Below, one piece after another: positions 1-19,314 of a stretch of 20,000 bases of DNA. Within the stretch, counting starts at the first letter, position 1, and each line of letters starts with the position of its first letter. Below the pieces are notes generated by a model. The model was not told the origin of the DNA, searched no databases, and was given only the letters and a program-made list of their open reading frames with translations. Origin of the DNA: an uncultured virus (IMG/VR IMGVR_UViG_3300009838_000020) (Duplodnaviria; Heunggongvirae; Uroviricota; Caudoviricetes); the IMG/VR virus record IMGVR_UViG_3300009838_000020. The stretch is one strand, 5' to 3'. A program made the position numbers and the translations under genes.

Positions 1-1049
1 TCAAAAGACAATTTACAAGACTCATTATAGTCTTTTACTGGCACTGAAATTGCTGTATTAACTGAATTATCACTTCCTAGTCTAACTGCTGAAATTCTGA
101 CTTGTATTCCGTATTTTTCTATGGTACTTGCTATCAAATAGGCTGGCATTAAATACAAAGCTCGGTTGCCGTCACCTATAGTTAAAAAATTAACTGGAAA
201 AAAAATATCAACATGCTTTACGCTGTCTTTCTTTTTTTCATAAAGTAAATAACTTTTTTTGTTACTAGAGGCGTATTTGAGTTTTACATTATTTTGCCCA
301 TTGAAAATTTTGCTAGGGTTTGCTGTTTCATAAGTGACCTCTATACCGTCGCTGTTTTCTTTTAAAAAACACTTGTCTGGGTACGTTTCATGTACCTTAG
401 TAGCTCCTTTTTGTCTGCGGACGCAAGAAAAAGTTCTATTGTCTACTGACACATTATAAACCCTGTTGCTTCCGACCATTACCAAGTTTACTTTTTCTGG
501 GTCTGCTACTCCATCTGGGCTTTCAAGATAAAAAAAAGGATTTTTTGTATTGCTATTTTTTATGTAATCTTTAAGTTCTTGTGAGAAAAATTCAACTGGT
601 CTAAACAAGCCCTGACTAGCCAAAGAAAAGTCAAAAACTCCTCTTTTGTCTTCGGTAATTTTAATGCGGTCGTTTTTATATAAACCTCCTAAATTTACTA
701 TAGCTTCTAAGTTTTCTACAATTTTGCCTGTTGTTTTTTTAATTTTTGTAAAATTTGCAGTACTAGAATTAACACTGTCCAAAAAAGCGTTTAAATTGGT
801 AAAATTTGAACCAGACACAAAACTTAGAGCACTTGTCGCATAACTTGGTATTTTATTTTGACTCCTTAGCTCTTGTACTAGATTGTATGCATCTTCTAGT
901 GATTTATACTGCTTAAAAACAAAGCCGTTACTGAACATGTACGAAAAAGTGTTTTGACCGCCTGTAATACTATTTTGCGACAAATTATTCACGTACATAG
1001 AAAAATCACGTGGCGGTAATGCTTTTATTAGCTCAAAAATGTTGTTCAT
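1..1049 (-). CDS. Partial CDS (>=349 aa, 3' end outside window); probable vWA/CobT-like partner of the upstream MoxR-type AAA+ ATPase
   Basis: Missing from the ORF track. Manual translation from ATG 1049 (3 nt after the ATPase stop) is open to the window edge: MNNIFELIKALPPRDF...GVFDFSLASQGLFRP...KHVDIFFPVNF...AYLIASTIEKYGIQVRISAV...ISVPVKDYNE. The helix-'EKYG'-strand-'PVKD' pattern resembles degenerate vWA partners of phage CobS/CbbQ-like ATPases. No DxSxS MIDAS motif is seen. The ORF is solid; the function is tentative. Confidence 0.6.
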   Translation of the reverse strand, partial: MNNIFELIKALPPRDFSMYVNNLSQNSITGGQNTFSYMFSNGFVFKQYKSLEDAYNLVQELRSQNKIPSYATSALSFVSGSNFTNLNAFLDSVNSSTANFTKIKKTTGKIVENLEAIVNLGGLYKNDRIKITEDKRGVFDFSLASQGLFRPVEFFSQELKDYIKNSNTKNPFFYLESPDGVADPEKVNLVMVGSNRVYNVSVDNRTFSCVRRQKGATKVHETYPDKCFLKENSDGIEVTYETANPSKIFNGQNNVKLKYASSNKKSYLLYEKKKDSVKHVDIFFPVNFLTIGDGNRALYLMPAYLIASTIEKYGIQVRISAVRLGSDNSVNTAISVPVKDYNESCKLSF

Positions 1050-1052
1050 TTT

Positions 1053-2411
1053 TTAATTTTTTGGCAACATGTTTTCAATTTCATCTAACTCTTCTGGTGT
1101 GTTGATTTCGTCGATTGGTAATTTGTCTTTTGTTTTCACAATAGAAAGCCATCCGTCGTAATCTGTTTTTGATTTTAATATATCCGCTTGCTCTGGTGTA
1201 AATAAACTAAAAAATTCATCTAACGAGTCTTTTACCCTTTTTACAGTATCAGACTCCATGATAGCAATAACCTCAGAATATAATGCTGGGGTAAAAGAAA
1301 CATCTTCGTTTGGTAACGGTACAACTTTTGTGTTTTTACCAGCATTTTGACGAATCATTTTTGAAACATACCATGTTTTTTGAACCGACTGCATTAAACG
1401 TATAGAAACAAAAGCTTTTGCTGTAAAGCCCTCATCTACAATTGCTTTTCTTAGTTTGTTTAGATACAAGTAAATAAAAGCCCATCTTTGTCTTAATATG
1501 CCCTCCCACTCAAATCTTTCGTCCACAAATACTTTGTAGGTTGAGCCAGCAAAACGGTCTTGTAATGATAAATCCTGCTTAAAGTTGGCTTCATACTCGG
1601 CATCTTTTGTGTTTAGCAAAGAGTTACCCGTTGCTAGAACAAAAAAGTCACCTCTGCTAAATTTTTGACCTCTGGCATTTGTTACTTTTGCGGGCATGTT
1701 GTCGCTGTCATATTCCCCTGCTTTTGCCAAAATTGAGTTTAATAAACCTGCGGTATTTGGGTCTATTTTTGGTAATTCATCTAACAACAAAATACATCCT
1801 CTGTTTGTTGGTTGCCCGAATTCATCTAAGTTAGCATAAGCTCTAATCGCTTTACCTTCTTGATAGCCGTCAATTGTTTGACCGCCTTGTATTTCAAGCT
1901 GTGATGTAAATTGGTTACAGTTAATTTCGATTAAATCCCAGTCTAAAAATTTAGCCAGTGTGCCAGCTAAATAGGTTTTCCCTGTACCTGCTCCTCCGTA
2001 TAGATAAACATTGTTCCTTGCCAATAAGTCACTTAATACTTTTTGTATAAGCGGTCTTTTCATTTCGGGTTTTACGGTTAGATTTTTCTTGACTACAACT
2101 CCAGAAGCTTGCTGAATGTTCAAAGTCATTACGGCTGGCTGATTTGATAGCATTTTTTTCACACTGCTATCTAAGTTGTCAATTGAAATTTTTTCGTCTT
2201 CAATTAAATCTCTGACTATTTTTTTAACTTCATTTTCGTCCAAATTGTTGGTTTTTTTTGAAGCTAACAACTGACTAAGTTGTATCATTTTCTGTGCAAC
2301 TTCGTCTCCTTGAAATTCTGTTGCTAGTCTTTTTTTTGCCAACTCAACAACTTTCTGATTGCTACTTGTGTTTATGGTCTCTAACAGCTGTTCTTTTGTT
2401 ACTGTATTCAT
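1053..2411 (-). CDS. MoxR/CbbQ/CobS-like AAA+ ATPase (AAA_5 type) with helical N-terminal extension
   Basis: Walker A GGAGTGKT, Walker B ILLLDE, sensor-1 strand FFVLATGN, arginine-finger region QDLSLQDRF, sensor-2-like VSIR. Confidence 0.88.
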   Translation of the reverse strand: MNTVTKEQLLETINTSSNQKVVELAKKRLATEFQGDEVAQKMIQLSQLLASKKTNNLDENEVKKIVRDLIEDEKISIDNLDSSVKKMLSNQPAVMTLNIQQASGVVVKKNLTVKPEMKRPLIQKVLSDLLARNNVYLYGGAGTGKTYLAGTLAKFLDWDLIEINCNQFTSQLEIQGGQTIDGYQEGKAIRAYANLDEFGQPTNRGCILLLDELPKIDPNTAGLLNSILAKAGEYDSDNMPAKVTNARGQKFSRGDFFVLATGNSLLNTKDAEYEANFKQDLSLQDRFAGSTYKVFVDERFEWEGILRQRWAFIYLYLNKLRKAIVDEGFTAKAFVSIRLMQSVQKTWYVSKMIRQNAGKNTKVVPLPNEDVSFTPALYSEVIAIMESDTVKRVKDSLDEFFSLFTPEQADILKSKTDYDGWLSIVKTKDKLPIDEINTPEELDEIENMLPKN

Positions 2412-2413
2412 GG

Positions 2414-3118
2414 TTAATCAAAAATTAAATTTAACACGTTGTTTATTCTTTCGGAATTCCTGTCTTCAAATATTTGTGCTCTGCCAATGGCTATTTTTGC
2501 TAGTGTTTTTGTTTTAAATGTTTTAATAATGTTTGGCGTATTAGCACCTAAAAACACTTCTACAGCAACTATGTCTGTGTCTGGAACAAAGCTTGTGTCA
2601 GATTTTGCTTTATCAAAATCTTCAATAGATTTTCTTAACAATTCATCAAAATCTACAGCTTCATCATCGTCTCCAAAACTATCAGCTCCTTCACCCTCAC
2701 CTTCGCCTTCTCCTTCTCCTTTGTCGTCATCGCTATCGTCGGTATTCGTGCCGTCATCTGGCTTGCCTTCATTATCGTCCTCGTCGTCGGGCGAATTTAT
2801 ACCTCCTTCGGTTTTTCCGTTATCGTTATTTTCGTCTTCACCGTCGCTTTTGTCGTCCTTACCATCATTGTCCTCTCCTTCGCCTTTGTCTGGCTCAGGA
2901 TTGTTGTTTTTGTTTTCGTCTTTACCTTCGTTGTCTTTTGACTCTTTGTCTTTGTCAAAAGGGTCTTCTACATTGTCGGGCACTTTGTCTGGTGGTGGTG
3001 GTGGTGGAAAGCCACCTCCTTCTGGCGGAGTGTCGTTTGGCTCATTAACCCTTAATATTATGATTTTGTCTCTTTTGAGGTTGTATGTTGTTTTTCCTTT
3101 TTCCATTTTATAAATCAT
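2414..3118 (-). CDS. Hypothetical protein with poly-Pro tract and long acidic low-complexity region
   Basis: 234-aa ORF (alternative ATG at 3106) that fits tightly between its neighbours. PPEGGGFPPPPPP is followed by a D/E/G/N/K-rich stretch including GEGEGEGEGEG, then a short ordered-looking C-terminus. Confidence 0.75.
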   Translation of the reverse strand: MIYKMEKGKTTYNLKRDKIIILRVNEPNDTPPEGGGFPPPPPPDKVPDNVEDPFDKDKESKDNEGKDENKNNNPEPDKGEGEDNDGKDDKSDGEDENNDNGKTEGGINSPDDEDDNEGKPDDGTNTDDSDDDKGEGEGEGEGEGADSFGDDDEAVDFDELLRKSIEDFDKAKSDTSFVPDTDIVAVEVFLGANTPNIIKTFKTKTLAKIAIGRAQIFEDRNSERINNVLNLIFD

Positions 3119-3626
3119 TAATGTTAACGTTCATTCTACCTGCGTTTCTTTTTGCTTTAAGAATATCCATAGCTTCTTTTTTTGACAGTTCTACAACAAC
3201 AACATCTTCGGTGTCGGGGTCGGCATCAACAACTCTTCCAAACTTATTGCCAATACGCACGATGTCGTTTGGCTCTGGTAGCTCTTGAAACGTTTTTGGT
3301 GGTTCTGGAGGTGTTGGTTGCGGTGTTGTTTGTTGTGGTGGAGTCTCTTTTAATTGCTTAAATATCTCCTCTTCAAAAAACTCAATAGCGTCTTCAAAAT
3401 TTTCTTTTAAATCTTTCGATTTGTTGAATTTTTTGTAAATCACATATTGCCCGTCAACCTCTTTGTATACAATATAAGGTTTATTTTGATTGTTTTCGTT
3501 GATAGTGTACTCAACTTCAATCACCATTCCGCTAGTTACGTGCGTTAGCCTTAACACATAAGTGTTTGGCTTGTTTGCAACTGGTGTGTTTGACTCTTTT
3601 AAAGTCCCTGATTTATATACAAACAT
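3108..3626 (-). CDS. Hypothetical two-domain protein with Pro/Gln/Thr linker and possible KOW/SH3-like C-terminal domain
   Basis: 172-aa ORF overlapping the upstream stop by 14 nt. Linker TPPQQTTPQPTPPEPP; C-terminal PEPNDIVRIGNKFGRVVDAD resembles a KOW/SH3-like barrel (tentative). Confidence 0.7.
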   Translation of the reverse strand: MFVYKSGTLKESNTPVANKPNTYVLRLTHVTSGMVIEVEYTINENNQNKPYIVYKEVDGQYVIYKKFNKSKDLKENFEDAIEFFEEEIFKQLKETPPQQTTPQPTPPEPPKTFQELPEPNDIVRIGNKFGRVVDADPDTEDVVVVELSKKEAMDILKAKRNAGRMNVNINDL

Positions 3627-6600
3627 ATCCTCCGTTTTTAAATCTTATGTCATTGAAAAATTTGAAATAAAACGATTTTTTAGCCAACACGCTTTTTACT
3701 TGGTTGGGGTAAAAAGTTAAAAACTCGCTTTCTACCATCCACGCTGTTCGGTCTTGATTCATTGTGCCATCTGCATTAAATGTTGGCACATCACCTTCTT
3801 GAAACAGTGCGTCATATCCGTAATTTTTCATCGTTTCAATTAATTCCGTATCGTTTCTTATAATGTTCCAAAACGGCATGTCCCTGTTCGGGTCTCCGCC
3901 TATTGCATTTAAAACGCTTGGGTTGTAATCTATAATTATACCGTAAGCGACTGCTAAATAATCTTTTAGGTCTTTATATGTACCCCTAAAGCCCAAAGGT
4001 AAAAAAGAAACTGGATTTTTCACATTTAAAAAGACTTTATATATGAACGGACTGTAATCCGCACTTGGGGTTGGTTGATTTTCAGATATACCTGCATAAA
4101 ATTTAGCATATTCTAAATTGTCTGTAAAAAACGAAGCTGGATATGCTGGTGGCTCAAAAGAACCATAAGGTCTTTTTATACCACTTCCAGTGTTTAGCAT
4201 TTGAGAGCCCTCTACATATTGTCTAACTCCATGATAATATATCTGTGGCTCTTTTGTTTCTTCGTCAATCATTACAGAGCAATTTAGATAGTTGCCTGTT
4301 TCGTATGCTTTTTCCCAGTCGCCAAACCAGTTTTTAAAATGCGGTGTCCGAACGTTTAAATACGCACCAATAGGTAATTTACTTTTTTCGCCATTTGGTG
4401 TTGGTAAACCGCACGGCTCGTCAAGTTCCGCAACTGGACTCTGTCTTGCTTGCTGAAAATAATAATGCAATAAATTCTGTGGCGTAAAGAAAGATGTGGC
4501 ATTATCTGTTTGATACGCATCGGACAGTATGCTTTTTTCTTTCTTCTCGACCAGCGTACCCAACTCTTTTAATAGAATAGCACGCTCTATTGAATTACTT
4601 GCCCCTTGAAAAAATGGCAACATTTCTATCAATGCTTTGATGTCTTTATCTAGCTTGCCCTCATCGGTGAATTCTTGTGGCAAAGTTCTAATGTCTGCAA
4701 CATTTTTTTCGTATTGCTCGGCATCAATTCTAGCTTGTTTATCTTCATCGCTTTCTGGAGCGTTAGTGCTTTGTGGTGCTACAGTCTGCCCTCTAAACCA
4801 CGATAGCAAATCATATTTTTCTATCAGTTTTTTATAGTTTTCTTCGTCGTGAAAAGCAATGCTTTTTTCAAATTTTTCTGTCTCAAAAAAATCGATGTTA
4901 ATTTCTCTTGGCTGGTTTGGAAGATGGTCAACAATTACAAAAGTCCATTTCGGTTTTACGTCGTTGAACTCAAAAGAAACTACAACATCGCCCATGCTTG
5001 ATTCGTGAGAATAAACAACCGCTTTTTTAAATGAAATCCAGCTTGTAAATCTTTTGTCTTTTACTTTTTCAAAAAATTCATTATTACTTGCTTCTGTAAT
5101 CTCAATACTAAAAATTGGTAATTTAGTATTTTGATTACTGGCTGTTTTTGGAGAATTAAACCATGTTCCAAAAGAATAGTCTGTATTAAGCTTTTCAAAC
5201 AATTTTTCGTTGTTTTCAGCCATGCTTAAACCAAAATTTGAAGGCGTAATTTCGTCAAACGGAATTTCTTTAGCCGTAGCGGTTCTTAACCATTTGTTGT
5301 AAAAATCTACCCAAATCGTGTCATTATCGAGATTATTAAAAAAAACACGCACACTTAACGTTTCAATACTTGGGTTTTCTTCCTGAAATTCTAAAATTGC
5401 TAATTTAAAGTCTTCAAAAGAGTAGTATTTTCTACCTCTATACTTTTGGTCAAAATAACTGCTAAACCAACCATCTATTGTCAAAAACTCTATTTTTGGC
5501 AAGCTGGTTGCTTTGCTTGTATTGGTTGACGCAATAGAGGTTACTGGAGTAGCGGTGTCAAAAATAAAGTCTTCAACATTTGTTTCAACAAATAAATCGT
5601 CGGCATTGTTTAAAACCCCTAAATTAATTAAAAAGTCGGCAGGCGTAAAACTACGTAACAACAACGCTCTCTTTGTGGTTGTGTAATCATCTACAAATTT
5701 TAGATAATAAACCAAAGCAAAAGGAGCAAATTGGACTTTTAGCGAAAACTCATCTATAGTATTTGACGTAATTTGTTTTGCGTTTGCGTTTTCTACGTAT
5801 GATATTAGCCAAGCTTTTAATTCTTCAAAGTTTTTGACTGTCAGTCCGACGTTGACGCTATCTGAAATAGTCGATTTATCTTTAGCAATAACGTTGTGCA
5901 ACGATATTATATTTATCTTTTCAATCTGAATTTTATTTGTGGATGGTGGTGCTGTTACTGCTGTTGCACTAGATTTTTTTGCTACTGATTTCTTTGTTTT
6001 TGGCTGTTTTTGATTTAAAAAATCCTCCACGTCCGTCTCCTCAGTAAGTTTTCTCCATCCACTTTGTCTTTTGGTCATTCTTATTACGTCAACACCTTTA
6101 AATGTTTCTGGATTAACTCTTTGAACTGTGTTTTTACTCCCTCTAGTTACGTTAAGCAAAAAAACGTTGGGTCTTGGTGGAAAAGAAAAGTAAAGATATG
6201 CACCTCTTATGATTTGGTTTTTTTCGTAAATTTCATTAATCGCTTCTTTAAGGTCGTCCAAAGTATTATATGTGTTGCCAGCCAAATCTGATAATGAATA
6301 ACTTGCCGTTGAAATTTTAATTCCAGTTATTGCTTCTTTAGTTACGCCACCATCTTCAAAAGCTTGTGTTATTTCATCGTCAGTAACCTCACTTGCAATT
6401 GCTTCTAAGTCTTCGTTTTCAATTAACTTTACAACTCCAAAATGTAGGTTTTCTGGAAACTCTTCCAGTTCAAACCATCCGTAATCAGTGTTTTCCCAGT
6501 TTAATTTTGGCACGAACTCTTCATCGACAAAAGCAATAAAATTATAAAACGTAAATTGTCCCGATTTAAAAACATAAGAAGGCTGTAATGTTTCTAATTG

Positions 6601-7296
6601 ATACCCAGTCTCTTCTTCTGCTTCTCTGACAACCGCCTCTATAACGCTAGTTTCACCTTCGTCCATCTTTCCGCTAATGATTCCCCATGTGTTTGGTTCG
6701 TAGACGTGCTTACTTCTTTTTAGTAATAGAAATCTTTTTGTTGATATGCAAAAAACCAATACACCGCCAGCAACACTACCCCAAAAGGTAGAAGGCACTC
6801 CTCCTTTTTCAAAAAGTTGTGCCATTTGCTCTGCTGAAATCTCACCACCTTTTTCATGGTCACAACCGCAGTCTTTTATCTGGTTAATAATCTCGTAATC
6901 GGTCATTGTTTTTCCTCCATACTCATAGCTGTTGCCGTAAAAATATATTTCACTCGGCACTTCTCCTCCTTCTGCAAAAGATACTCCACCGCCTTTTGAA
7001 TTAATTCTGGATAATATTTCTCGGTTTGTAAGCATTTCTCCTTCAAACATTCTTCGTTGTTGGTCTGCAACTGCTGGAGCTGTAATGACAACTTCGCCTC
7101 CTTGCATTTCTAAAGGCTGTCCAGTAGATTTATTAACAGCTTTTATACCGTTTTCGTCGTGTAATCTACCGACTAAATATCCTCCAGCTGTTCCTTTGTC
7201 GTGTACGATTGTTTGCCCCTTTCTTTTACCGACTAAAACACCTCCAGCTTGGGTTGCTTTTGCTTTCTCTTCTGTAATATTTATTTGTTTTGCCAT
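3613..7296 (-). CDS. Large polyvalent protein: Gly-rich N-terminal motif, Nudix hydrolase, four diverged tandem domains, C-terminal ADP-ribosyltransferase (ART-PolyVal-like)
   Basis: Nudix box GKMDEGETSVIEAVVREAEEETGY (6601-6672). C-terminal PNGEKSKL...VRTPHFKNWFGDWE...EPQIYYHG...FFTDNLEYAKFYA...VFLNVKNP...GYDALF...ESEFLTFYPNQVKS matches the motif order of ARTs in phage/plasmid polyvalent proteins. Confidence 0.82.
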   Translation of the reverse strand: MAKQINITEEKAKATQAGGVLVGKRKGQTIVHDKGTAGGYLVGRLHDENGIKAVNKSTGQPLEMQGGEVVITAPAVADQQRRMFEGEMLTNREILSRINSKGGGVSFAEGGEVPSEIYFYGNSYEYGGKTMTDYEIINQIKDCGCDHEKGGEISAEQMAQLFEKGGVPSTFWGSVAGGVLVFCISTKRFLLLKRSKHVYEPNTWGIISGKMDEGETSVIEAVVREAEEETGYQLETLQPSYVFKSGQFTFYNFIAFVDEEFVPKLNWENTDYGWFELEEFPENLHFGVVKLIENEDLEAIASEVTDDEITQAFEDGGVTKEAITGIKISTASYSLSDLAGNTYNTLDDLKEAINEIYEKNQIIRGAYLYFSFPPRPNVFLLNVTRGSKNTVQRVNPETFKGVDVIRMTKRQSGWRKLTEETDVEDFLNQKQPKTKKSVAKKSSATAVTAPPSTNKIQIEKINIISLHNVIAKDKSTISDSVNVGLTVKNFEELKAWLISYVENANAKQITSNTIDEFSLKVQFAPFALVYYLKFVDDYTTTKRALLLRSFTPADFLINLGVLNNADDLFVETNVEDFIFDTATPVTSIASTNTSKATSLPKIEFLTIDGWFSSYFDQKYRGRKYYSFEDFKLAILEFQEENPSIETLSVRVFFNNLDNDTIWVDFYNKWLRTATAKEIPFDEITPSNFGLSMAENNEKLFEKLNTDYSFGTWFNSPKTASNQNTKLPIFSIEITEASNNEFFEKVKDKRFTSWISFKKAVVYSHESSMGDVVVSFEFNDVKPKWTFVIVDHLPNQPREINIDFFETEKFEKSIAFHDEENYKKLIEKYDLLSWFRGQTVAPQSTNAPESDEDKQARIDAEQYEKNVADIRTLPQEFTDEGKLDKDIKALIEMLPFFQGASNSIERAILLKELGTLVEKKEKSILSDAYQTDNATSFFTPQNLLHYYFQQARQSPVAELDEPCGLPTPNGEKSKLPIGAYLNVRTPHFKNWFGDWEKAYETGNYLNCSVMIDEETKEPQIYYHGVRQYVEGSQMLNTGSGIKRPYGSFEPPAYPASFFTDNLEYAKFYAGISENQPTPSADYSPFIYKVFLNVKNPVSFLPLGFRGTYKDLKDYLAVAYGIIIDYNPSVLNAIGGDPNRDMPFWNIIRNDTELIETMKNYGYDALFQEGDVPTFNADGTMNQDRTAWMVESEFLTFYPNQVKSVLAKKSFYFKFFNDIRFKNGGYVCI

Positions 7297-7514
7297 TATT
7301 TTATGTATTTTGTCAGTGTTCCAACTAAATATCCTGCAATAATTGAAGTCCCTATCATTTTTAATAATTCGTGCTTTTCTGGAAAATGGAATTTAAAAGA
7401 TTTATCATCCGACCCATTTTGCTTACCGTAAGAGTAATGAATTATGTTTTCTGTCATGTTTGTTATAAACACAATTGCACCTGTAGTTAATGCGAGCCTT
7501 TGGTGTGGTTTCAT
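7296..7514 (-). CDS. Small putative membrane protein (two hydrophobic segments)
   Basis: 72 aa with hydrophobic stretches LALTTGAIVFIT and MIGTSIIAGYLVGTL. Its stop overlaps the polyvalent-protein start as TAATG. Confidence 0.7.
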   Translation of the reverse strand: MKPHQRLALTTGAIVFITNMTENIIHYSYGKQNGSDDKSFKFHFPEKHELLKMIGTSIIAGYLVGTLTKYIK

Positions 7515-7533
7515 TTAGCAATACTTTAATTAT

Positions 7534-7541
7534 CAAAAGTA
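7534..7541 (-). promoter_or_regulatory. Putative Bacteroidota sigma70 -7 element (TACTTTTG) for the polyvalent-protein operon
   Basis: Matches TAnnTTTG about 20 nt upstream of ATG 7514; no clear -33 TTTG at normal spacing. Confidence 0.45.
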
Positions 7542-7602
7542 CTATTTTTTCAAATAACTAACATTTTTTTGTTTAAAAAAAGAAAGTAAATGAAAAATTC
7601 TT

Positions 7603-7610: not shown

Positions 7611-7665
7611 TTGTGCATAGGTTTTTAATTAGATTAATGTATTTTGAAAGGCATTTTTTGACACG

Positions 7666-7693
7666 AAAAAACCCTCTTTTGAGGGTTTTTTTT
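7666..7693. terminator. Bidirectional intrinsic terminator
   Basis: AAAAAA-CCCTC-TTTT-GAGGG-TTTTTTTT immediately after the GT4 stop codon; U tract available on both strands. Confidence 0.8.
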
Positions 7694-8987
7694 ATTTTAA
7701 CAAGCTATCAAAAACTAATTTGAATCTATTGTTGACCGTATCCCACGTTGTTTTTCTTATTTTTTCATAAGCCCTTTCGATAATTGCTTCTACTGATTTC
7801 ATGGTTTCTTCTCCTTCCTGCCCTAGACCATAAACAACCTCGTATAATTTAGTTACTTCCGAAGGATTAATTACAAATCGTATCTTTTCGGCATCATTAA
7901 CAAATACCATAGGCTGTGAAAACATAAAGGAAAAGCAGTTCTTTCCATCGTCTGTAATTTCAGTTAGTGCGGTGTGTTTTGGGCAAACAACTAGTGTTTT
8001 TGTTGCCATAGCTTCTGTGACGCTTAACCCCCATCCCTCTGCTGTTGTTGTTGTTATAAAGCAATTAAAAGAGTTGTAGATTTCGTTCATTTGCTCTTCC
8101 GAAACCCCTTTGTTTTCGGAGTATTTTTCTGGAAAAAAAACATCTTCACCAACTTTTAAATTTAGCTTTCCTGCTAAATTCAGTAGGTTCACGCCCATCG
8201 GGTCTAAAGGATTGGTGTGTAAGTACAATACTGCTTTGTTTTGGTTGTTATGCTTAAACTGAGCAAAGCCTAGTAATAATGAAGAAAGGTCTTTTCTTGC
8301 AGTATTACGATTAACAGTTCCAAAAACAAAATCGGCATTTGGAAACATTTTTTTCTGAATTTCTCTTCTCTTTTCAATATCCAAAGGCTTAAATATTTCC
8401 GTATCCGTACCGTGCGGAATCACTGTTATTTTTTTAAAAACTTGGTTGGAAACCATGTGTTGACACAAGCTTTTTGCATACTCAGTATAAAGCACTATTT
8501 TATCAAAAAACTCAAAACCAGCTAGGTCGTTTTGTGAAGGCTGGCTGTCTATTGGTGCGTATAAAACCGACTTGAACATTTTTCTTTTTTCCTGCTTTTT
8601 GTTTGTTTTTACAATATCCATGTGTGGTTTTAGAGTTGTAAAAAATTCTGGGTCGTTGATACAGAAAAGCAAATCCCAGTCTATACTGTAAAGCATTTTT
8701 AAAAACTCTATTCTGGCAAACGGGTCTTTTCTGTTTTCTGAGGTAAATAAGCACGGGAAAACCATTACATTTTCTGCGTCTTGGTGTTGGCTTGGAGCAA
8801 AATCGTTTATTGCCAAAACGGTTATTTTGTAGTTTTTGTTTTTTGCCAGATTATCTACAATTTTTTTTGCAACTACGCCAAATCCAGTGGTGCAGTTGTA
8901 GTCTGCGTAAACTAATATTCTTTTAACCCCTGTAGCTTTTCTTGCTTTCTTTTCGTTGAATTTTTGTAATTGAATTGTTTTTGTCAT
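7692..8987 (-). CDS. Glycosyltransferase family 4 (GT-B fold)
   Basis: N-terminal TGFGVVA, IPHGTD..F.P, NRNTARKD and the EX7E motif EGWGLSVTEAMA. ATG 8987 after an A-rich leader is more plausible than the ORF-track start at 9026. Confidence 0.9.
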   Translation of the reverse strand: MTKTIQLQKFNEKKARKATGVKRILVYADYNCTTGFGVVAKKIVDNLAKNKNYKITVLAINDFAPSQHQDAENVMVFPCLFTSENRKDPFARIEFLKMLYSIDWDLLFCINDPEFFTTLKPHMDIVKTNKKQEKRKMFKSVLYAPIDSQPSQNDLAGFEFFDKIVLYTEYAKSLCQHMVSNQVFKKITVIPHGTDTEIFKPLDIEKRREIQKKMFPNADFVFGTVNRNTARKDLSSLLLGFAQFKHNNQNKAVLYLHTNPLDPMGVNLLNLAGKLNLKVGEDVFFPEKYSENKGVSEEQMNEIYNSFNCFITTTTAEGWGLSVTEAMATKTLVVCPKHTALTEITDDGKNCFSFMFSQPMVFVNDAEKIRFVINPSEVTKLYEVVYGLGQEGEETMKSVEAIIERAYEKIRKTTWDTVNNRFKLVFDSLLK

Positions 8988-8998
8988 TTGTTGTTTTT

Positions 8999-9703
8999 TT
9001 AATGGTTTTCTAAATCGTGCACACATGTGACTTTTTTTATAACATAGCTAGTAAGATTGTTACTAAGCATTCTTTCTCGGCATCTATTCCACATATCTCC
9101 ATCTGACGGAAAAAGCATTCTTTGTTCTGCCCAAACATTTCTGTACCGCAAGTCTAATTGCTTGTAGTCTATATAAACACTGCTGTGTATTAATTGTGCG
9201 TAAGCTGGCATTCTTGACTCTATTGTTCCATCTGGAGGCAACTGCGGAAACACTGGATTGTTTATAAACCTACTAAGTGTAAATAAAAAAGCTGGCTTCT
9301 TTGCAAATGCGTGGATTGCTTTGTTTATTTCTTCTAAGTGGTTTGGCATCCAATAATCGTCGTGGTCGAGGTGGCATAAATCATAAATACCTTCTGCTAC
9401 CGCTTTGTTTATTGCATAATTAACTGCGTTTGTTCCGCCAGTGTTCCATAATATTATTTTTTCATCTGGAGCTGTATAAACATCTCTCTCTAAGGCAAAG
9501 TTCAAATTAACCAACACTAGTTTGTCTGCTGGAATTATTTTAGAAATTTCAATCAGCTCCTCTGGGTCATCATATCGGTCTCCAATTAAAAAAAGCTTGT
9601 AGTTCTGAAACGTTTGATTAACTATAGATTCTAATGCTCTTTTTAGAAATTTAGGTGTGCTACCGTCCGCTCTTCGGTATGTAGCCATTGTTATACCTAT
9701 CAT
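8999..9703 (-). CDS. Glycosyltransferase family 2 (GT-A fold)
   Basis: ITMATYRR...LKRALESIVNQTFQNYKLFLIGD and DxD motif LDHDDYW.PNHLE. Confidence 0.88.
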   Translation of the reverse strand: MIGITMATYRRADGSTPKFLKRALESIVNQTFQNYKLFLIGDRYDDPEELIEISKIIPADKLVLVNLNFALERDVYTAPDEKIILWNTGGTNAVNYAINKAVAEGIYDLCHLDHDDYWMPNHLEEINKAIHAFAKKPAFLFTLSRFINNPVFPQLPPDGTIESRMPAYAQLIHSSVYIDYKQLDLRYRNVWAEQRMLFPSDGDMWNRCRERMLSNNLTSYVIKKVTCVHDLENH

Positions 9704-10308
9704 AGTTTTTTTACTATAAATTCGTTATTAAATTCCAAATGTGGCAACGCTCCTAAAGTGTTTGGTAAGCTTCCAATTACCTCCCATTCTGTAGGTTTTA
9801 GCATTACAGAAAGTGCGTCAACCGCTTTTTTTACCTCTGGAGAATGCACAGAGTCTTGATAGTCGTCAAAAACAATATAGCCTCCTTTTTTTACAAAAGG
9901 CACATAGTTTAAAAAGTCTCTAATAACCGCATCGTGGCTGTGGTCTCCGTCAATAAAAAGCAAATCAATCTCATTATAAAGTGCTTTTATTATGTCAAGT
10001 ATTTCATCGTCCTTGCTGTCACCTTTTAAATACACGTACTTGTTTTCTCCTGCAAACTTGTTTACTATTATTCTGCAAATAGTTGGTGAAATTGGCTCGC
10101 CTAAGTCTATAGATACAACTGTTGTGTTTGGTCTTTGTATCATTAAGCTTGCACTAGCTCCAGAATAAGCCCCTATTTCTAGGTAGTTAATGTGCCCTTT
10201 AAACTGGTCTGCAATATCCGCTAAAACATGGTGGTGTTCGTGAAATGTTTTTGCTTGTTTGGCTATTTCCCTAACGGCATCTAGTGATTTTTGTGTTGGT
10301 TGTATCAT
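9700..10308 (-). CDS. Class I SAM-dependent methyltransferase (Methyltransf_24-like, probably sugar O-methyltransferase)
   Basis: YLEIGAYSGAS, VSID, GDS, IDLLFIDGDHSHDAV..D, VKKGGYIVFDD. Confidence 0.88.
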   Translation of the reverse strand: MIQPTQKSLDAVREIAKQAKTFHEHHHVLADIADQFKGHINYLEIGAYSGASASLMIQRPNTTVVSIDLGEPISPTICRIIVNKFAGENKYVYLKGDSKDDEILDIIKALYNEIDLLFIDGDHSHDAVIRDFLNYVPFVKKGGYIVFDDYQDSVHSPEVKKAVDALSVMLKPTEWEVIGSLPNTLGALPHLEFNNEFIVKKL

Positions 10309-10889
10309 TATATTAGCTTTGCTGGTGTTCCTATGTAAGTTCCTGTTTTTGTTATGCTTTTAACCACTCCTGCGTTCATTCCTATTGTGCAATTTTTGCA
10401 TATTTGTAGCTTTTCACGAACGATAGCACCTGTTCCTAAATAAACAAAGTCGTGTATCGTGACATTACCACTAACATTAACCGCTGGAGCTGTGGTAGAA
10501 TAGTCCATTATCTCACTGTCGTGACCAACAGTTGTGTTTAAATTTAAGTGTACGTGATTTCCAATTTTAATGTTTGTTGTCAAAACACAACCAGCCATAA
10601 TTGCACATCCGTCACCAATTTCTATGGTTGCAATATCCAAAACATGTGCTCTTTTTGAAATATGTGTCCAATAGATTGTTTCTGCTGGTAGTTGTTTTTG
10701 TAGCATTAGTTTTGATTTTGGGTCTCCGACCGCAATTAATGCTAGGTGCTTGTCTGGGTCAAAATCTTCCAGCAATTCACAGTCGTCGTTCCAGTATTTT
10801 TTACTTACAAAGCACTTTAGTTTTTTGCCGTAATCTGCAATGATTTCTCTGGCAAAACCTCCGTTTCCAATTAACACTTTTTCTTTCAT
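10308..10889 (-). CDS. Sugar acetyltransferase, PglD/NeuD/PerB family (hexapeptide repeats)
   Basis: IGNGGFAREI, LIAVGDP, hexapeptide repeats with the catalytic His in TVGHD, C-terminal YIGTPAK. Confidence 0.9.
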   Translation of the reverse strand: MKEKVLIGNGGFAREIIADYGKKLKCFVSKKYWNDDCELLEDFDPDKHLALIAVGDPKSKLMLQKQLPAETIYWTHISKRAHVLDIATIEIGDGCAIMAGCVLTTNIKIGNHVHLNLNTTVGHDSEIMDYSTTAPAVNVSGNVTIHDFVYLGTGAIVREKLQICKNCTIGMNAGVVKSITKTGTYIGTPAKLI

Positions 10890-10919
10890 ATTGTTGGTTA
10901 TTAAGTTTCTTGTACCGCA

Positions 10920-11558
10920 CTACTTATTGAATATTTTGAATTTTGAAAGGTCTGGATAAGACAATTCCACATCTGGATTGCTCCTTTTTGTGCCGTCTTG
11001 ATTATAAAACTGTTTTATCAGTTGTAGCCCTCTTATAGCAAGCTCTGGCATCATATAAAAATTCCATCCTATTACTGGGTTGTCATCAAAATTGTCGTCG
11101 TGGTAAGAGCACTCTGAGCGACCGCTAAATCTTGCTTTTTTTAGCCACAAATAAGCTTTTTCGTCGTCAAGCAAAATAGCTCCTCCTTTTGATAATTTTA
11201 AATGCTTGTATGCTCCAGTAAACGATATGCACATAAATTGGTTTGGCACATACATATCTGCTGTAAATCTTAAAGCTGAGTCCCAAATTGGTAGCGGGCT
11301 TAATTGATAAGCTCCTTTCAATGTTAACCCAGTTGTTTCTTTCCATTTTACCTTTGCTCCAGCGTGTATGATTTCACAAGGTACGCTTGGATAAGTTCTT
11401 TTTGGTATTTCTATTTCTCTTCCTTCGGCTTGCAAATACTTCAAGCATAAAAAGAGTGCGTTGCTTTGATTGTCAACGCAAACAACATACGGTGCTCCCG
11501 TATATTTACTAATTTCTTTTTCAAATTGTTCGGTAACTACATGTATGTCTTGTGCCAT
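10920..11558 (-). CDS. Short DegT/DnrJ/EryC1/StrS-family PLP-dependent aminotransferase
   Basis: FEKEISKYTGAPYVVCVDNQSNALFLCL, IPKRTYPSV...IIHAGA, WDSA (for EDAA), SF...K (PLP lysine) followed by GGAILLDD, GWNFYM. Only 212 aa. Confidence 0.82.
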   Translation of the reverse strand: MAQDIHVVTEQFEKEISKYTGAPYVVCVDNQSNALFLCLKYLQAEGREIEIPKRTYPSVPCEIIHAGAKVKWKETTGLTLKGAYQLSPLPIWDSALRFTADMYVPNQFMCISFTGAYKHLKLSKGGAILLDDEKAYLWLKKARFSGRSECSYHDDNFDDNPVIGWNFYMMPELAIRGLQLIKQFYNQDGTKRSNPDVELSYPDLSKFKIFNK

Positions 11559-12301
11559 TATGCCCCTAGTATTTTATATCCTTTTACATTTATTAAACAC
11601 CCGAAAACCCTTTCTAATTCGTGGGCAACCGTGCCGTCTCCATCGTATCCGTTTGGAAACCTATCAATAACTTTATCGTAAATGTTGTTTTCCAAAAACC
11701 AATCGATTATTATTTTAAAGTTAACAAGAAACATTGTTCCTGCGACAAAATTATACTCGTCAAATCTAATTGTTTCATTAAAATAATTTTGCTCATATCC
11801 AATAATTTTTTGTTTTAAAATCCAATTTTTGCTACCAACCATCTTTACCTCTGACAAACCAGCTACTTGGTTGTGATAATGCTCTAAAAGCCCGTTATTG
11901 AAAAGCAAGGCATTTACTAGGTCTTTTCTCCATCTTTCTCCCAAACCTTTTTCGTGTGCAAGGCTTTTTTTTGAGTGTATTTTTAGAATTGTCTTGTATC
12001 TATAACCATAATCAACTATTGTCTGCAAAACACTAACAAAAGGTGCAACATCCATTCCTTTGTTTTCCACTAAATAAACCCCTGCATGTGGCAACTCCGT
12101 TATTATTCTTTCAATTGATTCAACAGGTTCAATTTCAGATACAGTTATGAAAATATCATGGCTTACGGTGATGTTTTTTAAATAGGGTAAATACCAATCT
12201 AGCAAGTCTAAATAATACAAGTGTAAAATCACAAGCATTGGTTTTTCGTAGGTAGTGTTCTGCAACCAAATATCGTGGTCTTTGTTGAAAGGTATTATCA
12301 T
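11558..12301 (-). CDS. Rhamnan synthesis F (RgpF)-like protein
   Basis: LHLYYLDL, VENKGMDVAPF, KIHSKKS...GERWR..L, FVAGTMF, DGTVAHELERVF. Confidence 0.82.
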   Translation of the reverse strand: MIIPFNKDHDIWLQNTTYEKPMLVILHLYYLDLLDWYLPYLKNITVSHDIFITVSEIEPVESIERIITELPHAGVYLVENKGMDVAPFVSVLQTIVDYGYRYKTILKIHSKKSLAHEKGLGERWRKDLVNALLFNNGLLEHYHNQVAGLSEVKMVGSKNWILKQKIIGYEQNYFNETIRFDEYNFVAGTMFLVNFKIIIDWFLENNIYDKVIDRFPNGYDGDGTVAHELERVFGCLINVKGYKILGA

Positions 12302-12302
12302 T

Positions 12303-12935
12303 TTACAAGTTAAAAGGTTTTCTATAGCTTTCGTTACTAGGTAGTCCTCCCCATTTTCTAATATAGTAGGCTCTGTTGTTCATAAAATTATTATTTATAG
12401 ACGGCTCTTTTGCAATTGTCATGCTGTTTCTATAAACTAAAGGATTTAATTTTGGCGTGAAATGCATGTTGCTTTTTTCTAAAAGCATTCTGTAATAGTA
12501 ATCATTATCTTCAAAGTACGCTGGAAAAAAGTTTTCGTCAAAGTTTCCAATTTTGTTCCAAGTGGCAACTGGCAAAATAAAAACGCACCAGTTTTGTAGC
12601 CCACAAAAAAAGTCGGCATTTGGAGTGTTTTTTATAAACGCTTGGATTTCTTGCTCAGTCATCCCTAAATAAATGTCATCATTGAGCATAAGGACATGTG
12701 TATATTTTGCTCTTTGAGCATAATCCATTAGCATGTTCCAGCTTGCGGAAACACCTAGATTTTTGTGTGGTATGTATCGGAAAAACTTTTTTTCTCTAGT
12801 TAGTATTTCTTGTTTTCCATTGTCGCAGATTACTATTTCTGTGTTTTGAAAATCTTCAAAATATTTCTCTAACGCTTGATTTAATAAGTCGGCTCTGTTT
12901 ATTGTTGGTATTGCAACCATTAATTTTATACTCAT
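12303..12935 (-). CDS. Glycosyltransferase family 2
   Basis: VAIPTINRADLL, ICDNG, NLGVSASWN, LMLNDDI, IGNFDENFFPAYFEDNDYYYR, YYIRKWG. Confidence 0.9.
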   Translation of the reverse strand: MSIKLMVAIPTINRADLLNQALEKYFEDFQNTEIVICDNGKQEILTREKKFFRYIPHKNLGVSASWNMLMDYAQRAKYTHVLMLNDDIYLGMTEQEIQAFIKNTPNADFFCGLQNWCVFILPVATWNKIGNFDENFFPAYFEDNDYYYRMLLEKSNMHFTPKLNPLVYRNSMTIAKEPSINNNFMNNRAYYIRKWGGLPSNESYRKPFNL

Positions 12936-16469: not shown

Positions 16470-16670
16470 TTTGTTGCTTTTTTTTGATTAATTCCAAAAC
16501 TATTTTTTCAGTGTCTTTGTCTAGTCCTGTCGGCATTTGACCTGTATTAATAAAAACATTAACCGAATGCTCTATTTTTTTCTATTAGCTGTGCGTGTAA
16601 TTAGTACTTTTTTTATTTTTTCCAATTCCTGATAAGCTTCGGTTGCCGTTATTTGCTCAATTGTAATCAT
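16453..16670 (-). pseudogene. Small gene interrupted by a -1 frameshift at an A7 run (pseudogene, programmed slip or sequencing error)
   Basis: ATG 16670 overlaps the upstream TGA (ATGA). The frame reads 32 codons to AGA AAA AAA TAG. One extra A gives a continuous 72-aa ORF that ends at TGA 16453, overlapping the next gene start. Confidence 0.55.
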
Positions 16671-18282: not shown

Positions 18283-18312
18283 CAAATATATTAATATTTT
18301 TTTAAATACAAA
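18283..18312 (-). promoter_or_regulatory. Bacteroidota sigma70-type promoter
   Basis: Minus strand TTTG-N18-TATATTTG, 27 nt upstream of ATG 18255. Confidence 0.7.
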
Positions 18313-19281: not shown

Positions 19282-19314
19282 CAAATATACAAATATTATT
19301 TGTTAGGATACAAA
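19282..19314 (-). promoter_or_regulatory. Bacteroidota sigma70-type promoter
   Basis: Minus strand TTTG-N21-TATATTTG, 25 nt upstream of ATG 19256. Confidence 0.72.

Follow-up and report, generated by a model that had tools for sequence, protein, structure and literature searches.

The DNA analysed here (hereafter the window) comprises 20,000 nucleotides of an uncultured phage of approximately 72 kb (IMG/VR record IMGVR_UViG_3300009838_000020; 71,849-bp contig), and every sizeable open reading frame (ORF) of the window is located on its minus strand. Positions 1 to 7,514 hold six genes, designated g1 to g6, which an earlier reading made without database searches (the sequence-only reading) had proposed as one coupled operon of a membrane protein, a polyvalent protein with a Nudix and an ADP-ribosyltransferase (ART) domain, two disordered adaptors, a MoxR-type AAA+ ATPase, and a partner resembling von Willebrand factor A (vWA) domains. 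The present analysis concerns the association of the C-terminal ART unit of g2 with a set of genes referred to as the cassette, which comprises three parts: a linker protein (split here into g3 and g4), the AAA+ ATPase g5, and its probable partner g6. The description as six co-oriented, tightly packed minus-strand genes was confirmed: according to the coordinates, g1 and g2 overlap by 1 nt (TAATG), g2 and g3 by 14 nt, and g3 and g4 by 11 nt, followed by gaps of 2 nt between g4 and g5 and of 3 nt between g5 and g6.

Components of the ART unit and the cassette

The polyvalent protein g2 (3613–7296, minus strand; 1227 amino acids (aa)) ends in what is termed here the long-form ART unit (residues ~880–1227; 3616–4659, minus strand), consisting of a conserved pre-ART domain of ~130 aa (residues ~880–1010) and an ART-PolyVal domain (Pfam PF18760, match at residues 1016–1207). 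The ART-PolyVal match exceeded the Pfam cut-off in homologues from other loci (L003 40.4 bits, L007 53.4, L008 47.5, and L080 43.5). An H-Y-D configuration of the ART-PolyVal active site is described in Iyer et al. 2017 (PMC5512222). The corresponding positions in the window are H1022, F1056, and D1162, with His at position 1022 in 30 and Asp at position 1162 in 34 of 35 aligned domains.

Between g2 and g5, the window carries g3 (3108–3626, minus strand; 172 aa) and g4 (2414–3118, minus strand; 234 aa), the N-terminal and C-terminal halves, respectively, of a linker protein. The former is composed of a globular N-domain, a Pro/Gln-rich linker of ~25 residues, and a small C-domain; the latter has an acidic low-complexity stretch of ~120 residues nearly devoid of hydrophobic residues and a conserved C-domain of ~80 aa (Asp + Glu making up 29% of g4 overall). 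Disorder-like composition is limited in g3 to the short Pro/Gln segment and in g4 extends over the long acidic stretch. At most related loci, a single ORF of 280–800 aa lies between the polyvalent gene and g5, with a globular start, a long low-complexity middle of GE, GQ, GS, or PQ repeats (often 20–34% Asp + Glu), and a helical end; this ORF is split into g3 and g4 in the clade of the window and is fused in L017. Therefore, the two disordered adaptors of the sequence-only reading are to be replaced by one linker protein that is split here. By means of local iterated hidden Markov models (HMMs), homology of g3 and g4 was not traceable beyond the closest clade, and the equivalence of the linker ORFs across loci is based on position, size, and composition.

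The gene g5 (1053–2411, minus strand) encodes an AAA_5-class AAA+ ATPase of 452 aa (Pfam AAA_5, 52.5 bits at a cut-off of 22) with a Walker A motif (G139–T146), a Walker B motif (D211–E212), sensor-1 (N263), and a candidate Arg finger (R286); G139, K145, D211, E212, N263, and R286 were invariant across 18 family members. The family profile built from these 18 members matched midasin (3.4e-13) and CobS (2e-3) in the PDB, a phmmer search of the PDB with the single g5 sequence returned no match, and the match of g5 to phrog_249 (“porphyrin biosynthesis,” E 1.5e-16) was read as CobS-like. Scores of g5 against bpMoxR (PF20030) were weak (17.3–25.7 bits at a cut-off of 27; window protein 17.3), and AAA_3 (PF07726) did not match the window protein at E ≤ 0.1 and reached 16.4 bits at a cut-off of 27 in L008. 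The closest matches of g5 are midasin, CobS, and NorQ, not MoxR proper; of the MoxR assignment made earlier, the placement in the wider MoxR-related AAA_5 group was retained and the narrower one given up. No CobS or CobT model was among the NCBIfam matches of g5 or g6 (E ≤ 0.1; CobN was not searched for). As a separate observation, the AAA+ gene at L029 (7187–9658) and L062 (11951–14422), both on the same contig, encodes 823 aa with an internal weak homing-endonuclease match (Pfam Hom_end, E 3.6e-4, at the 21.1-bit cut-off); the g5 family HMM hit this gene in separate pieces flanking the insertion, which suggests that it is intein-like.

Only the first 349 of the 558 aa of g6 are encoded in the window (3–1049, minus strand), as the gene continues past the window start; the full-length protein is P0114. 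Neither Pfam, PHROG, NCBIfam, nor PADLOC yielded a family match for g6, and its viral, DUF7192-related family is small (227 clusters at E ≤ 0.001 in a profile scan of 1.84 billion representatives). DUF7192 (PF23822) matched 9 of 44 sampled family members (best E 2.1e-10), the g6 of the window remaining unmatched, and among the 30 nearest Atlas clusters there are 29 in which some members bear DUF7192. A model of g6 was obtained with AlphaFold2 (AF2) at a predicted local distance difference test (pLDDT) value of 83.8, and the sub-threshold Foldseek list of this model was dominated by vWA domains. In VIA-align, the nine best matches were all MIDAS domains of Rea1/MDN1 or vWA domains of NorD (Z 5.4–6.8, 169–206 residues aligned), e.g., Rea1-MIDAS at Z 6.8 (206 aligned, root-mean-square deviation (rmsd) 7.1), NorD at Z 6.6 (202 aligned, rmsd 6.5), and MDN1 at Z 6.0 (173 aligned, rmsd 4.7), compared to Z 4.3 at most for generic vWA domains. 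CobT_C clusters were among the structural neighbours of the g6 Atlas model (template modelling (TM) score ~0.3). Because these weak signals agree and the best matches are the vWA partners of AAA_5 rings, a divergent pair of AAA_5 and MIDAS-like protein is favoured, in which g6 is probably the vWA/MIDAS-like partner of g5, as had been proposed; the signal is weak, at the level of the fold, and comes with no sequence-family match.

Residues 121–153 of g6 (FDFxLASxGLxRPxE) are highly conserved and were modelled with low confidence; this segment may be ordered only in a complex. The g6 family profile gave chance-level matches only against PDB sequences. The protein encoded beside the AAA gene in Acinetobacter phage AM24 was rejected as a relative of the g6 family (hhalign probability 0.9%), and fused forms of g6 longer than 978 aa were sought with none found, which is weak evidence.

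Synteny and joint inheritance

The comparison set comprised approximately 100 related loci. In the eight IMG/VR loci found with g5, the order of the polyvalent C-terminus, g3, g4, g5, and g6 was kept. A search seeded with the g6 family alone retrieved 19 loci, four of them cut by contig ends; at all 15 with enough upstream DNA, a protein carrying the N-terminal domain of g2 (N-domain, residues 1–150) was located upstream, followed by ~1.0–2.4 kb and then by g5 and g6, and this order held even at 24–29% g6 identity. Seeding with the N-domain yielded 65 loci, 31 with g5 and g6 and 34 without. Wherever either of the two genes was present, they were adjacent and 0–6 nt apart (31/31), and the same was true of 4/4 loci from metagenome-assembled genomes (MAGs).

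After removal of duplicates and of 8 loci with too little downstream DNA, 29 unique cassette loci and 19 cassette-less loci were compared, with the ART region being scored by a local HMM built from the ART region of the window and its homologues. A continuous long-form ART was present at 29/29 cassette loci versus 1/19 cassette-less loci (48 unique loci), and the pre-ART domain at 24/29 versus 0/19. At all 29 cassette loci, the long-form ART ended 1.0–2.4 kb before g5, a distance corresponding to one linker gene. It mostly formed the extreme C-terminus of the preceding protein and was a separate gene of 330–370 aa directly upstream of the linker in L007, L008, L026, and L101. Short ART forms in which the central 60 positions are missing occurred at three other cassette-less loci, and in cassette-less relatives the polyvalent gene was directly followed by further giant polyvalent genes.

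With g5 serving as marker of the cassette, a g5 homologue was not found in any of five whole related records without an adjacent cassette (three of them 90–100% complete), and the positive control recovered g5 in 5/5 records known to contain it; therefore, the cassette is optional. Cassette status was further mapped onto a phylogeny of the glycosyltransferase encoded next to the polyvalent gene (33 rows, of which 26 had the cassette and 7 lacked it; loci lacking the gene or a known status were omitted). Five changes of status were needed, each on a well-supported branch, and the nearest relatives of the window on this tree were without cassette. The long ART changed in the same direction as the cassette in 5/5 independent pairs on this tree (p = 0.0625, the lowest value that five pairs can give) and in 4/4 pairs on the N-domain tree (p = 0.125).

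The ART unit and the cassette were inherited, gained, and lost as one block, with at least five such gains or losses among close relatives, and this block is dispensable for the lineage. The simplest reading of the loci is that the long ART, the linker, the AAA+ ATPase, and g6 are swapped together as a single block, which occupies the 3′ end of the polyvalent gene. The genomic link between the AAA+/vWA-like pair and an ADP-ribosylation unit, proposed from the window alone, was thereby borne out beyond close relatives. Independent occurrence of the pair and the polyvalent protein without synteny, named by the sequence-only reading as the observation that would speak against it, was not what the gene-neighbourhood comparison returned, as synteny was conserved.

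Proposed function and rival explanations

Midasin, NorQ-NorD, and CbbQ-CbbO combine an AAA_5 ring with a vWA adaptor, and the vWA part docks the substrate onto the ATPase. By analogy, we infer that g5 and g6 correspond, in a highly diverged viral form, to pairs such as CobS/CobT and NorQ/NorD, and the co-inheritance suggests a dedicated handling machine for the ART enzyme. In our judgement, the chances are evenly balanced that the g5/g6 pair together with the acidic linker serves as a dedicated chaperone or remodeller of the ART unit. In such an arrangement, the g5 ring would dock via g6, and perhaps also via the acidic linker, onto the ART unit, with the linker acting as co-adaptor, tether, or inhibitor. 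As long as the ART unit is in the producing cell, the cassette may hold it in an unfolded or inactive state, and it may also make the ART unit competent for delivery or for action on its host target. The Nudix domain, the N-terminal handle of g2, and g1 lie outside the ART/cassette unit. A more specific version, which we consider unlikely, has the ring, the MIDAS-like adaptor, and the acidic disordered co-adaptor recognise the long-form ART unit at the C-terminus of the polyvalent protein and unfold or prime it, so that the giant effector could be loaded into the capsid or pass through the tail. If true, phages would have their own equivalent of the chaperone-ATPase pairs found in bacterial secretion, and a dedicated ATP-driven loader would be known for the first time for a phage protein that is injected.

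The proposal touches on two open questions. Polyvalent proteins are predicted to enter with the phage DNA and to disarm the host, which raises the question of how effectors of 1,000–2,000 residues are kept harmless, loaded, and delivered. Viral AAA+/vWA pairs (cobST-like and MoxR-vWA) are widespread, but hardly any of their substrates have been identified. The joint gain and loss with a particular enzyme unit now provides one such viral pair with a clear candidate client, and the two questions merge into one bench test of four proteins. DUF7192 gains a working hypothesis as an adaptor for an AAA_5 ATPase.

Several observations weigh against assigning the cassette to the ART unit in this way. 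The loci all come from a single viral lineage (g5 identity 35–62%), and synteny is therefore partly inherited; independent contrasts number only four to five, so that the sign tests ended at the p values given above, and one locus (L069) has a long-form ART without the cassette. The distant AAA homologues in crAss-like and Acinetobacter phages stand in other contexts with no polyvalent gene nearby. On the side of the enzyme, the ART-PolyVal score of the window protein is just under the cut-off (28.3 versus 31.2 bits), and the window has Phe at position 1056, where Tyr is found in 31 and Phe in 4 of the 35 aligned domains. On the side of g6, no vWA or CobT family of Pfam matched P0114 or the 44 family members (E ≤ 0.01), Foldseek of the g6 model against the PDB gave no match at E ≤ 0.001 (best 2.5e-2), and the fold scores are below Z 7–8, a level which according to VIA is often reached by unrelated models. 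The metal site of vWA/MIDAS domains has the motif DxSxS…T…D, and no DxSxS was seen after the modelled first strand (residues 279–285) or among the invariant columns of g6. Lastly, the idea that g2 is packaged into the virion derives from publications on proteins of its class, and a PHROGs search of 57 ORFs of a 70.5-kb relative recovered no terminase, portal, or capsid protein.

Inheritance as a block would also be expected if the cassette acted alongside the ART enzyme instead of on it: once infection has begun, g6 would capture a host complex or defence protein for remodelling by the ATPase and modification by the ART enzyme, in the service of host takeover or anti-defence. Accessory counter-defence genes tend to show the same optional, patchy occurrence as this block, and a phage MoxR ATPase is reported to be required for overcoming a defence system (PMC13716836). 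The weak resemblance of g5 to the defence ATPase IetA, the only kind of match that PADLOC returned for g5, points the same way, but this resemblance lies far below the family cut-off (26 versus 510 bits), no host target is known, and nothing indicates that g5 or g6 is delivered into the cell or produced early; we rate this alternative as unlikely. Retention of the linker gene directly behind the ART region in all cassette loci, with translational coupling in the window through the 14-nt overlap, and its fast-evolving, repeat-rich composition would also be expected if the acidic linker, alone or aided by g5 and g6, inhibited the ART enzyme in the producing cell in the manner of a toxin-immunity pair and the ATPase released this inhibitor. 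No homology to known immunity or antitoxin families was found in Pfam, PHROG, NCBIfam, or PADLOC, however, and it is not obvious why a lytic phage should protect a cell that is due for lysis, which leaves such an immunity function very unlikely.

A further possibility, and a distinctly unlikely one in our view, is that g5 and g6 are a generic CobS/CobT-like pair, i.e., a metal-chelatase helper or virion-assembly chaperone, standing beside the ART unit through inherited gene order. Pairs resembling cobST are widespread in tailed viruses and have been proposed to function in cobalamin synthesis (PMC8651126), and g5 and g6 are likewise adjacent, with an AAA_5-type ATPase followed by a larger partner. 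The match of g5 to phrog_249, its weak match to solved CobS structures, the CobT_C clusters among the Atlas neighbours of g6, the occurrence of distant AAA homologues without polyvalent genes, and the restriction of all loci to one lineage fit this explanation. Nevertheless, g6 has neither a CobT or vWA Pfam match nor a recognisable MIDAS motif, the window showed no connection with cobalamin genes, and g5 and g6 are instead associated with an ART-PolyVal unit and an acidic linker, the linker gene always lying between ART and ATPase. Joint gain and loss with the long-form ART, in both sets of contrasts and in the comparison of the 48 loci, speaks against unrelated neighbours as well, and the absence of the ATPase from the three genomes of 90–100% completeness argues against an essential role in assembly.

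The proposed chaperone or remodeller of the ART unit can also be compared with characterised AAA+/vWA systems. Relative to midasin (Rea1/MDN1), NorQ-NorD, and CbbQ-CbbO, g5 has midasin as its best PDB match and g6 has the Rea1/MDN1 MIDAS and NorD domains as its best folds, whereas the Z scores of g6 (≤6.8) are modest, the client would be a phage effector, and here the third component, always present, is an acidic disordered protein. Virus-encoded MoxR-vWA chaperone/co-chaperone pairs have been proposed for tail assembly of Acidianus two-tailed virus and for group 2.2 jumbo phages (PMC7824862), i.e., for virion assembly. The pair g5/g6 is likewise a virus-encoded AAA+/vWA-like pair but is dispensable in complete relatives and travels with an enzyme domain and not with structural genes. 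MoxR-vWA ternary conflict systems of multicellular bacteria, reportedly described by Kaur et al. in 2020, are said to serve cellular defence and to have a beta-propeller third component; both systems join an AAA+/vWA core to effectors, whereas the one described here is a phage module with bpMoxR scores below the cut-off.

A full-text literature search turned up no description of polyvalent or ART-PolyVal proteins being linked to an AAA+/vWA pair, and no mention of DUF7192 either. The terms AAA+, vWA, MoxR, and CobS are absent from the main text of PMC5512222, the supplements of which may hold such neighbourhoods, and no link between ART-PolyVal and an AAA+/vWA pair occurs in the accessible portion of PMC9503650.

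Remaining parts of g2, flanking signals, and the host

The N-terminal handle of g2 (residues 1–150; 6847–7296, minus strand), i.e., the N-domain used above, is conserved in the polyvalent family, with G39, G43, H46, G50, I51, E63, E68, L95, and N99 being invariant. It matched no Pfam family, and its AF2 model was too poor for a structure search (pLDDT 53.8). Assignment to the crAss cargo protein 1 family was rejected, as the Atlas score of 0.81 is at chance level and Pfam gave no confirmation. A blastp self-comparison of g2 revealed no internal repeats. The N-domain was common to 865 of 1147 scored candidates (675–2148 aa), the domain sets of which vary and include ART-PolyVal, Nudix, DUF5661, DUF5824, sliding clamp, Zeta toxin with AAA_33, N6 methylase with Eco57I and DarA_C, GNAT, and ParB (Pfam identifiers PF18760, PF00293, PF18905, PF19141, PF02767, PF06414, PF02384, and PF18789). 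Giant genes neighbouring the relatives of g2 carry LPD1, LPD11, SNF2 or Strawberry-notch helicases, and PAPS reductase. The combination of a handle, shuffled effector domains, and LPD1/LPD11 neighbours is what characterises the polyvalent proteins described by Iyer et al. 2017 (PMC5512222), where such proteins are proposed to be packaged and injected; g2 shares all three features with them and differs in that its handle has no Pfam family match. The designation of g2 as a polyvalent protein, with Nudix and ART-PolyVal within 1227 aa, was accordingly upheld.

The Nudix domain of g2 (residues 178–286; 6439–6765, minus strand) matched Pfam PF00293 at E 9.4e-15 (55.2 bits versus a cut-off of 21.1). 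The Nudix box contains REx2EE, and the box REAEEETGY is readable in the sequence, preceded by a spacer that was counted as one residue longer than in the canonical form. Given the differing domain sets among the 865 N-domain proteins, the Nudix domain is thus one interchangeable effector domain of many in this family, and its inclusion in an ATPase-coupled unit was dropped.

In loci L030 to L094, the N-domain gene heads two or three more giant genes and forms a polyvalent island (e.g., L033 12458–17461, L047 13397–18397, and L087 14291–20270), with genes that carry an SNF2 or Strawberry-notch helicase, a methylase with DarA_C, Zeta toxin, LPD1, and LPD11. A short core of the N-domain (~60–70 aa, GPSHxxGGIPAVVxGxxPIExEGGEYVI) was also seen in much more distant viral proteins (L077–L092), sometimes internally and with one His and two Glu invariant; it may be a small enzyme or binding module. 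At one close relative, a protein related to crAss001_48 (PF21825, E 1.1e-16) is encoded just upstream of the polyvalent gene (L003, 3559–4035), a possible sign that genes have been exchanged with crAss-like Bacteroidota phages. PHROGs annotation of the 70.5-kb relative (L095–L098) gave only a tail-fibre-like protein and an endolysin, and the structural module of this phage lineage is to be regarded as very divergent. Lysis genes lie downstream in relatives.

The first gene of the operon, g1 (7296–7514, minus strand), encodes 72 aa with two weakly hydrophobic stretches, the hydrophobicity of which is marginal (Kyte-Doolittle 19-residue means ≤1.44). No homologue was found in 98 related loci at E ≤ 10, and no Pfam, PHROG, NCBIfam, or PADLOC family matched. 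Therefore, g1 is established neither as a membrane protein, which is how it had been read, nor as part of a conserved module; it is a bystander outside the ART/cassette unit.

Upstream of g1, an AT-rich spacer of ~150 nt is followed by a palindromic, terminator-like hairpin (7665–7692; 12 pairs, T/A runs on both sides), which sits directly at the stop codon of a glycosyltransferase gene (7692–9026) and closes the upstream block of glycan or modification genes. The scan of the whole window was not enriched in terminator-like sites (2 versus a shuffle mean of 6.7, i.e., fewer than in shuffled sequences); therefore, the case for this hairpin, and with it for the previously proposed terminator between the operon and the glycan genes, rests on its position. 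The consensus of the Bacteroidota −7 promoter element is TAnnTTTG, and a candidate element, TACTTTTG (7534–7541, minus strand; a motif match only), lies ~20 nt upstream of the g1 ATG. The operon thus keeps a candidate promoter of its own as far as the presence of the motif goes, although its frequency across the window shows no enrichment (32 matches versus 36 expected). TAnnTTTG was also seen at 16495–16502, 18283–18290, and 19282–19289 (all minus strand) before three further minus-strand genes; the four sites are located in intergenic spacers 20–35 nt upstream of gene starts, which fits Bacteroidota-type promoters.

The rest of the window is phage-like and encodes glycosyltransferases, a methyltransferase, a hexapeptide transferase, an RgpF-like protein, a Phg_2220_C replication protein, HTH proteins, and a DUF932 protein. 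The glycosyltransferase at 12303–12935 (minus strand) also matched TAGT (TET-associated glycosyltransferase; 27.1 bits at a cut-off of 27.5), on account of which the “glycan cluster” (7692–12935) may modify bases of the phage DNA and not a surface glycan. An ORF of 212 aa at 10920–11558 (minus strand) matched only positions 26–88 of the 360-position DegT/DnrJ aminotransferase profile and may be a truncated or very divergent aminotransferase.

Searches of GenBank phages gave no nucleotide match for window positions 1–7600 and no tblastn match for g6 (truncated or full length) or for the N-domain of the window or of L092, and g5 matched only at 25–30% identity in crAss-like, Acinetobacter, and Gordonia phages; a cultured relative is therefore lacking. 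In the crAss-like and Acinetobacter phages, the distant AAA homologues adjoin a different small partner. Four MAG contigs carry g5 and g6, namely those labelled Arcicella, Saprospiraceae, Saprospira, and Ca. Planktophila (a 3-kb contig), and the 61-kb Saprospiraceae contig shows the full order of N-domain protein, ART, linker, AAA+ ATPase, and g6. Because the MAG contigs and the promoter-like motif together indicate, without proving, a host from this phylum, the phage probably infects a member of the Bacteroidota. Relatives of the phage also occur in Tara ocean data.

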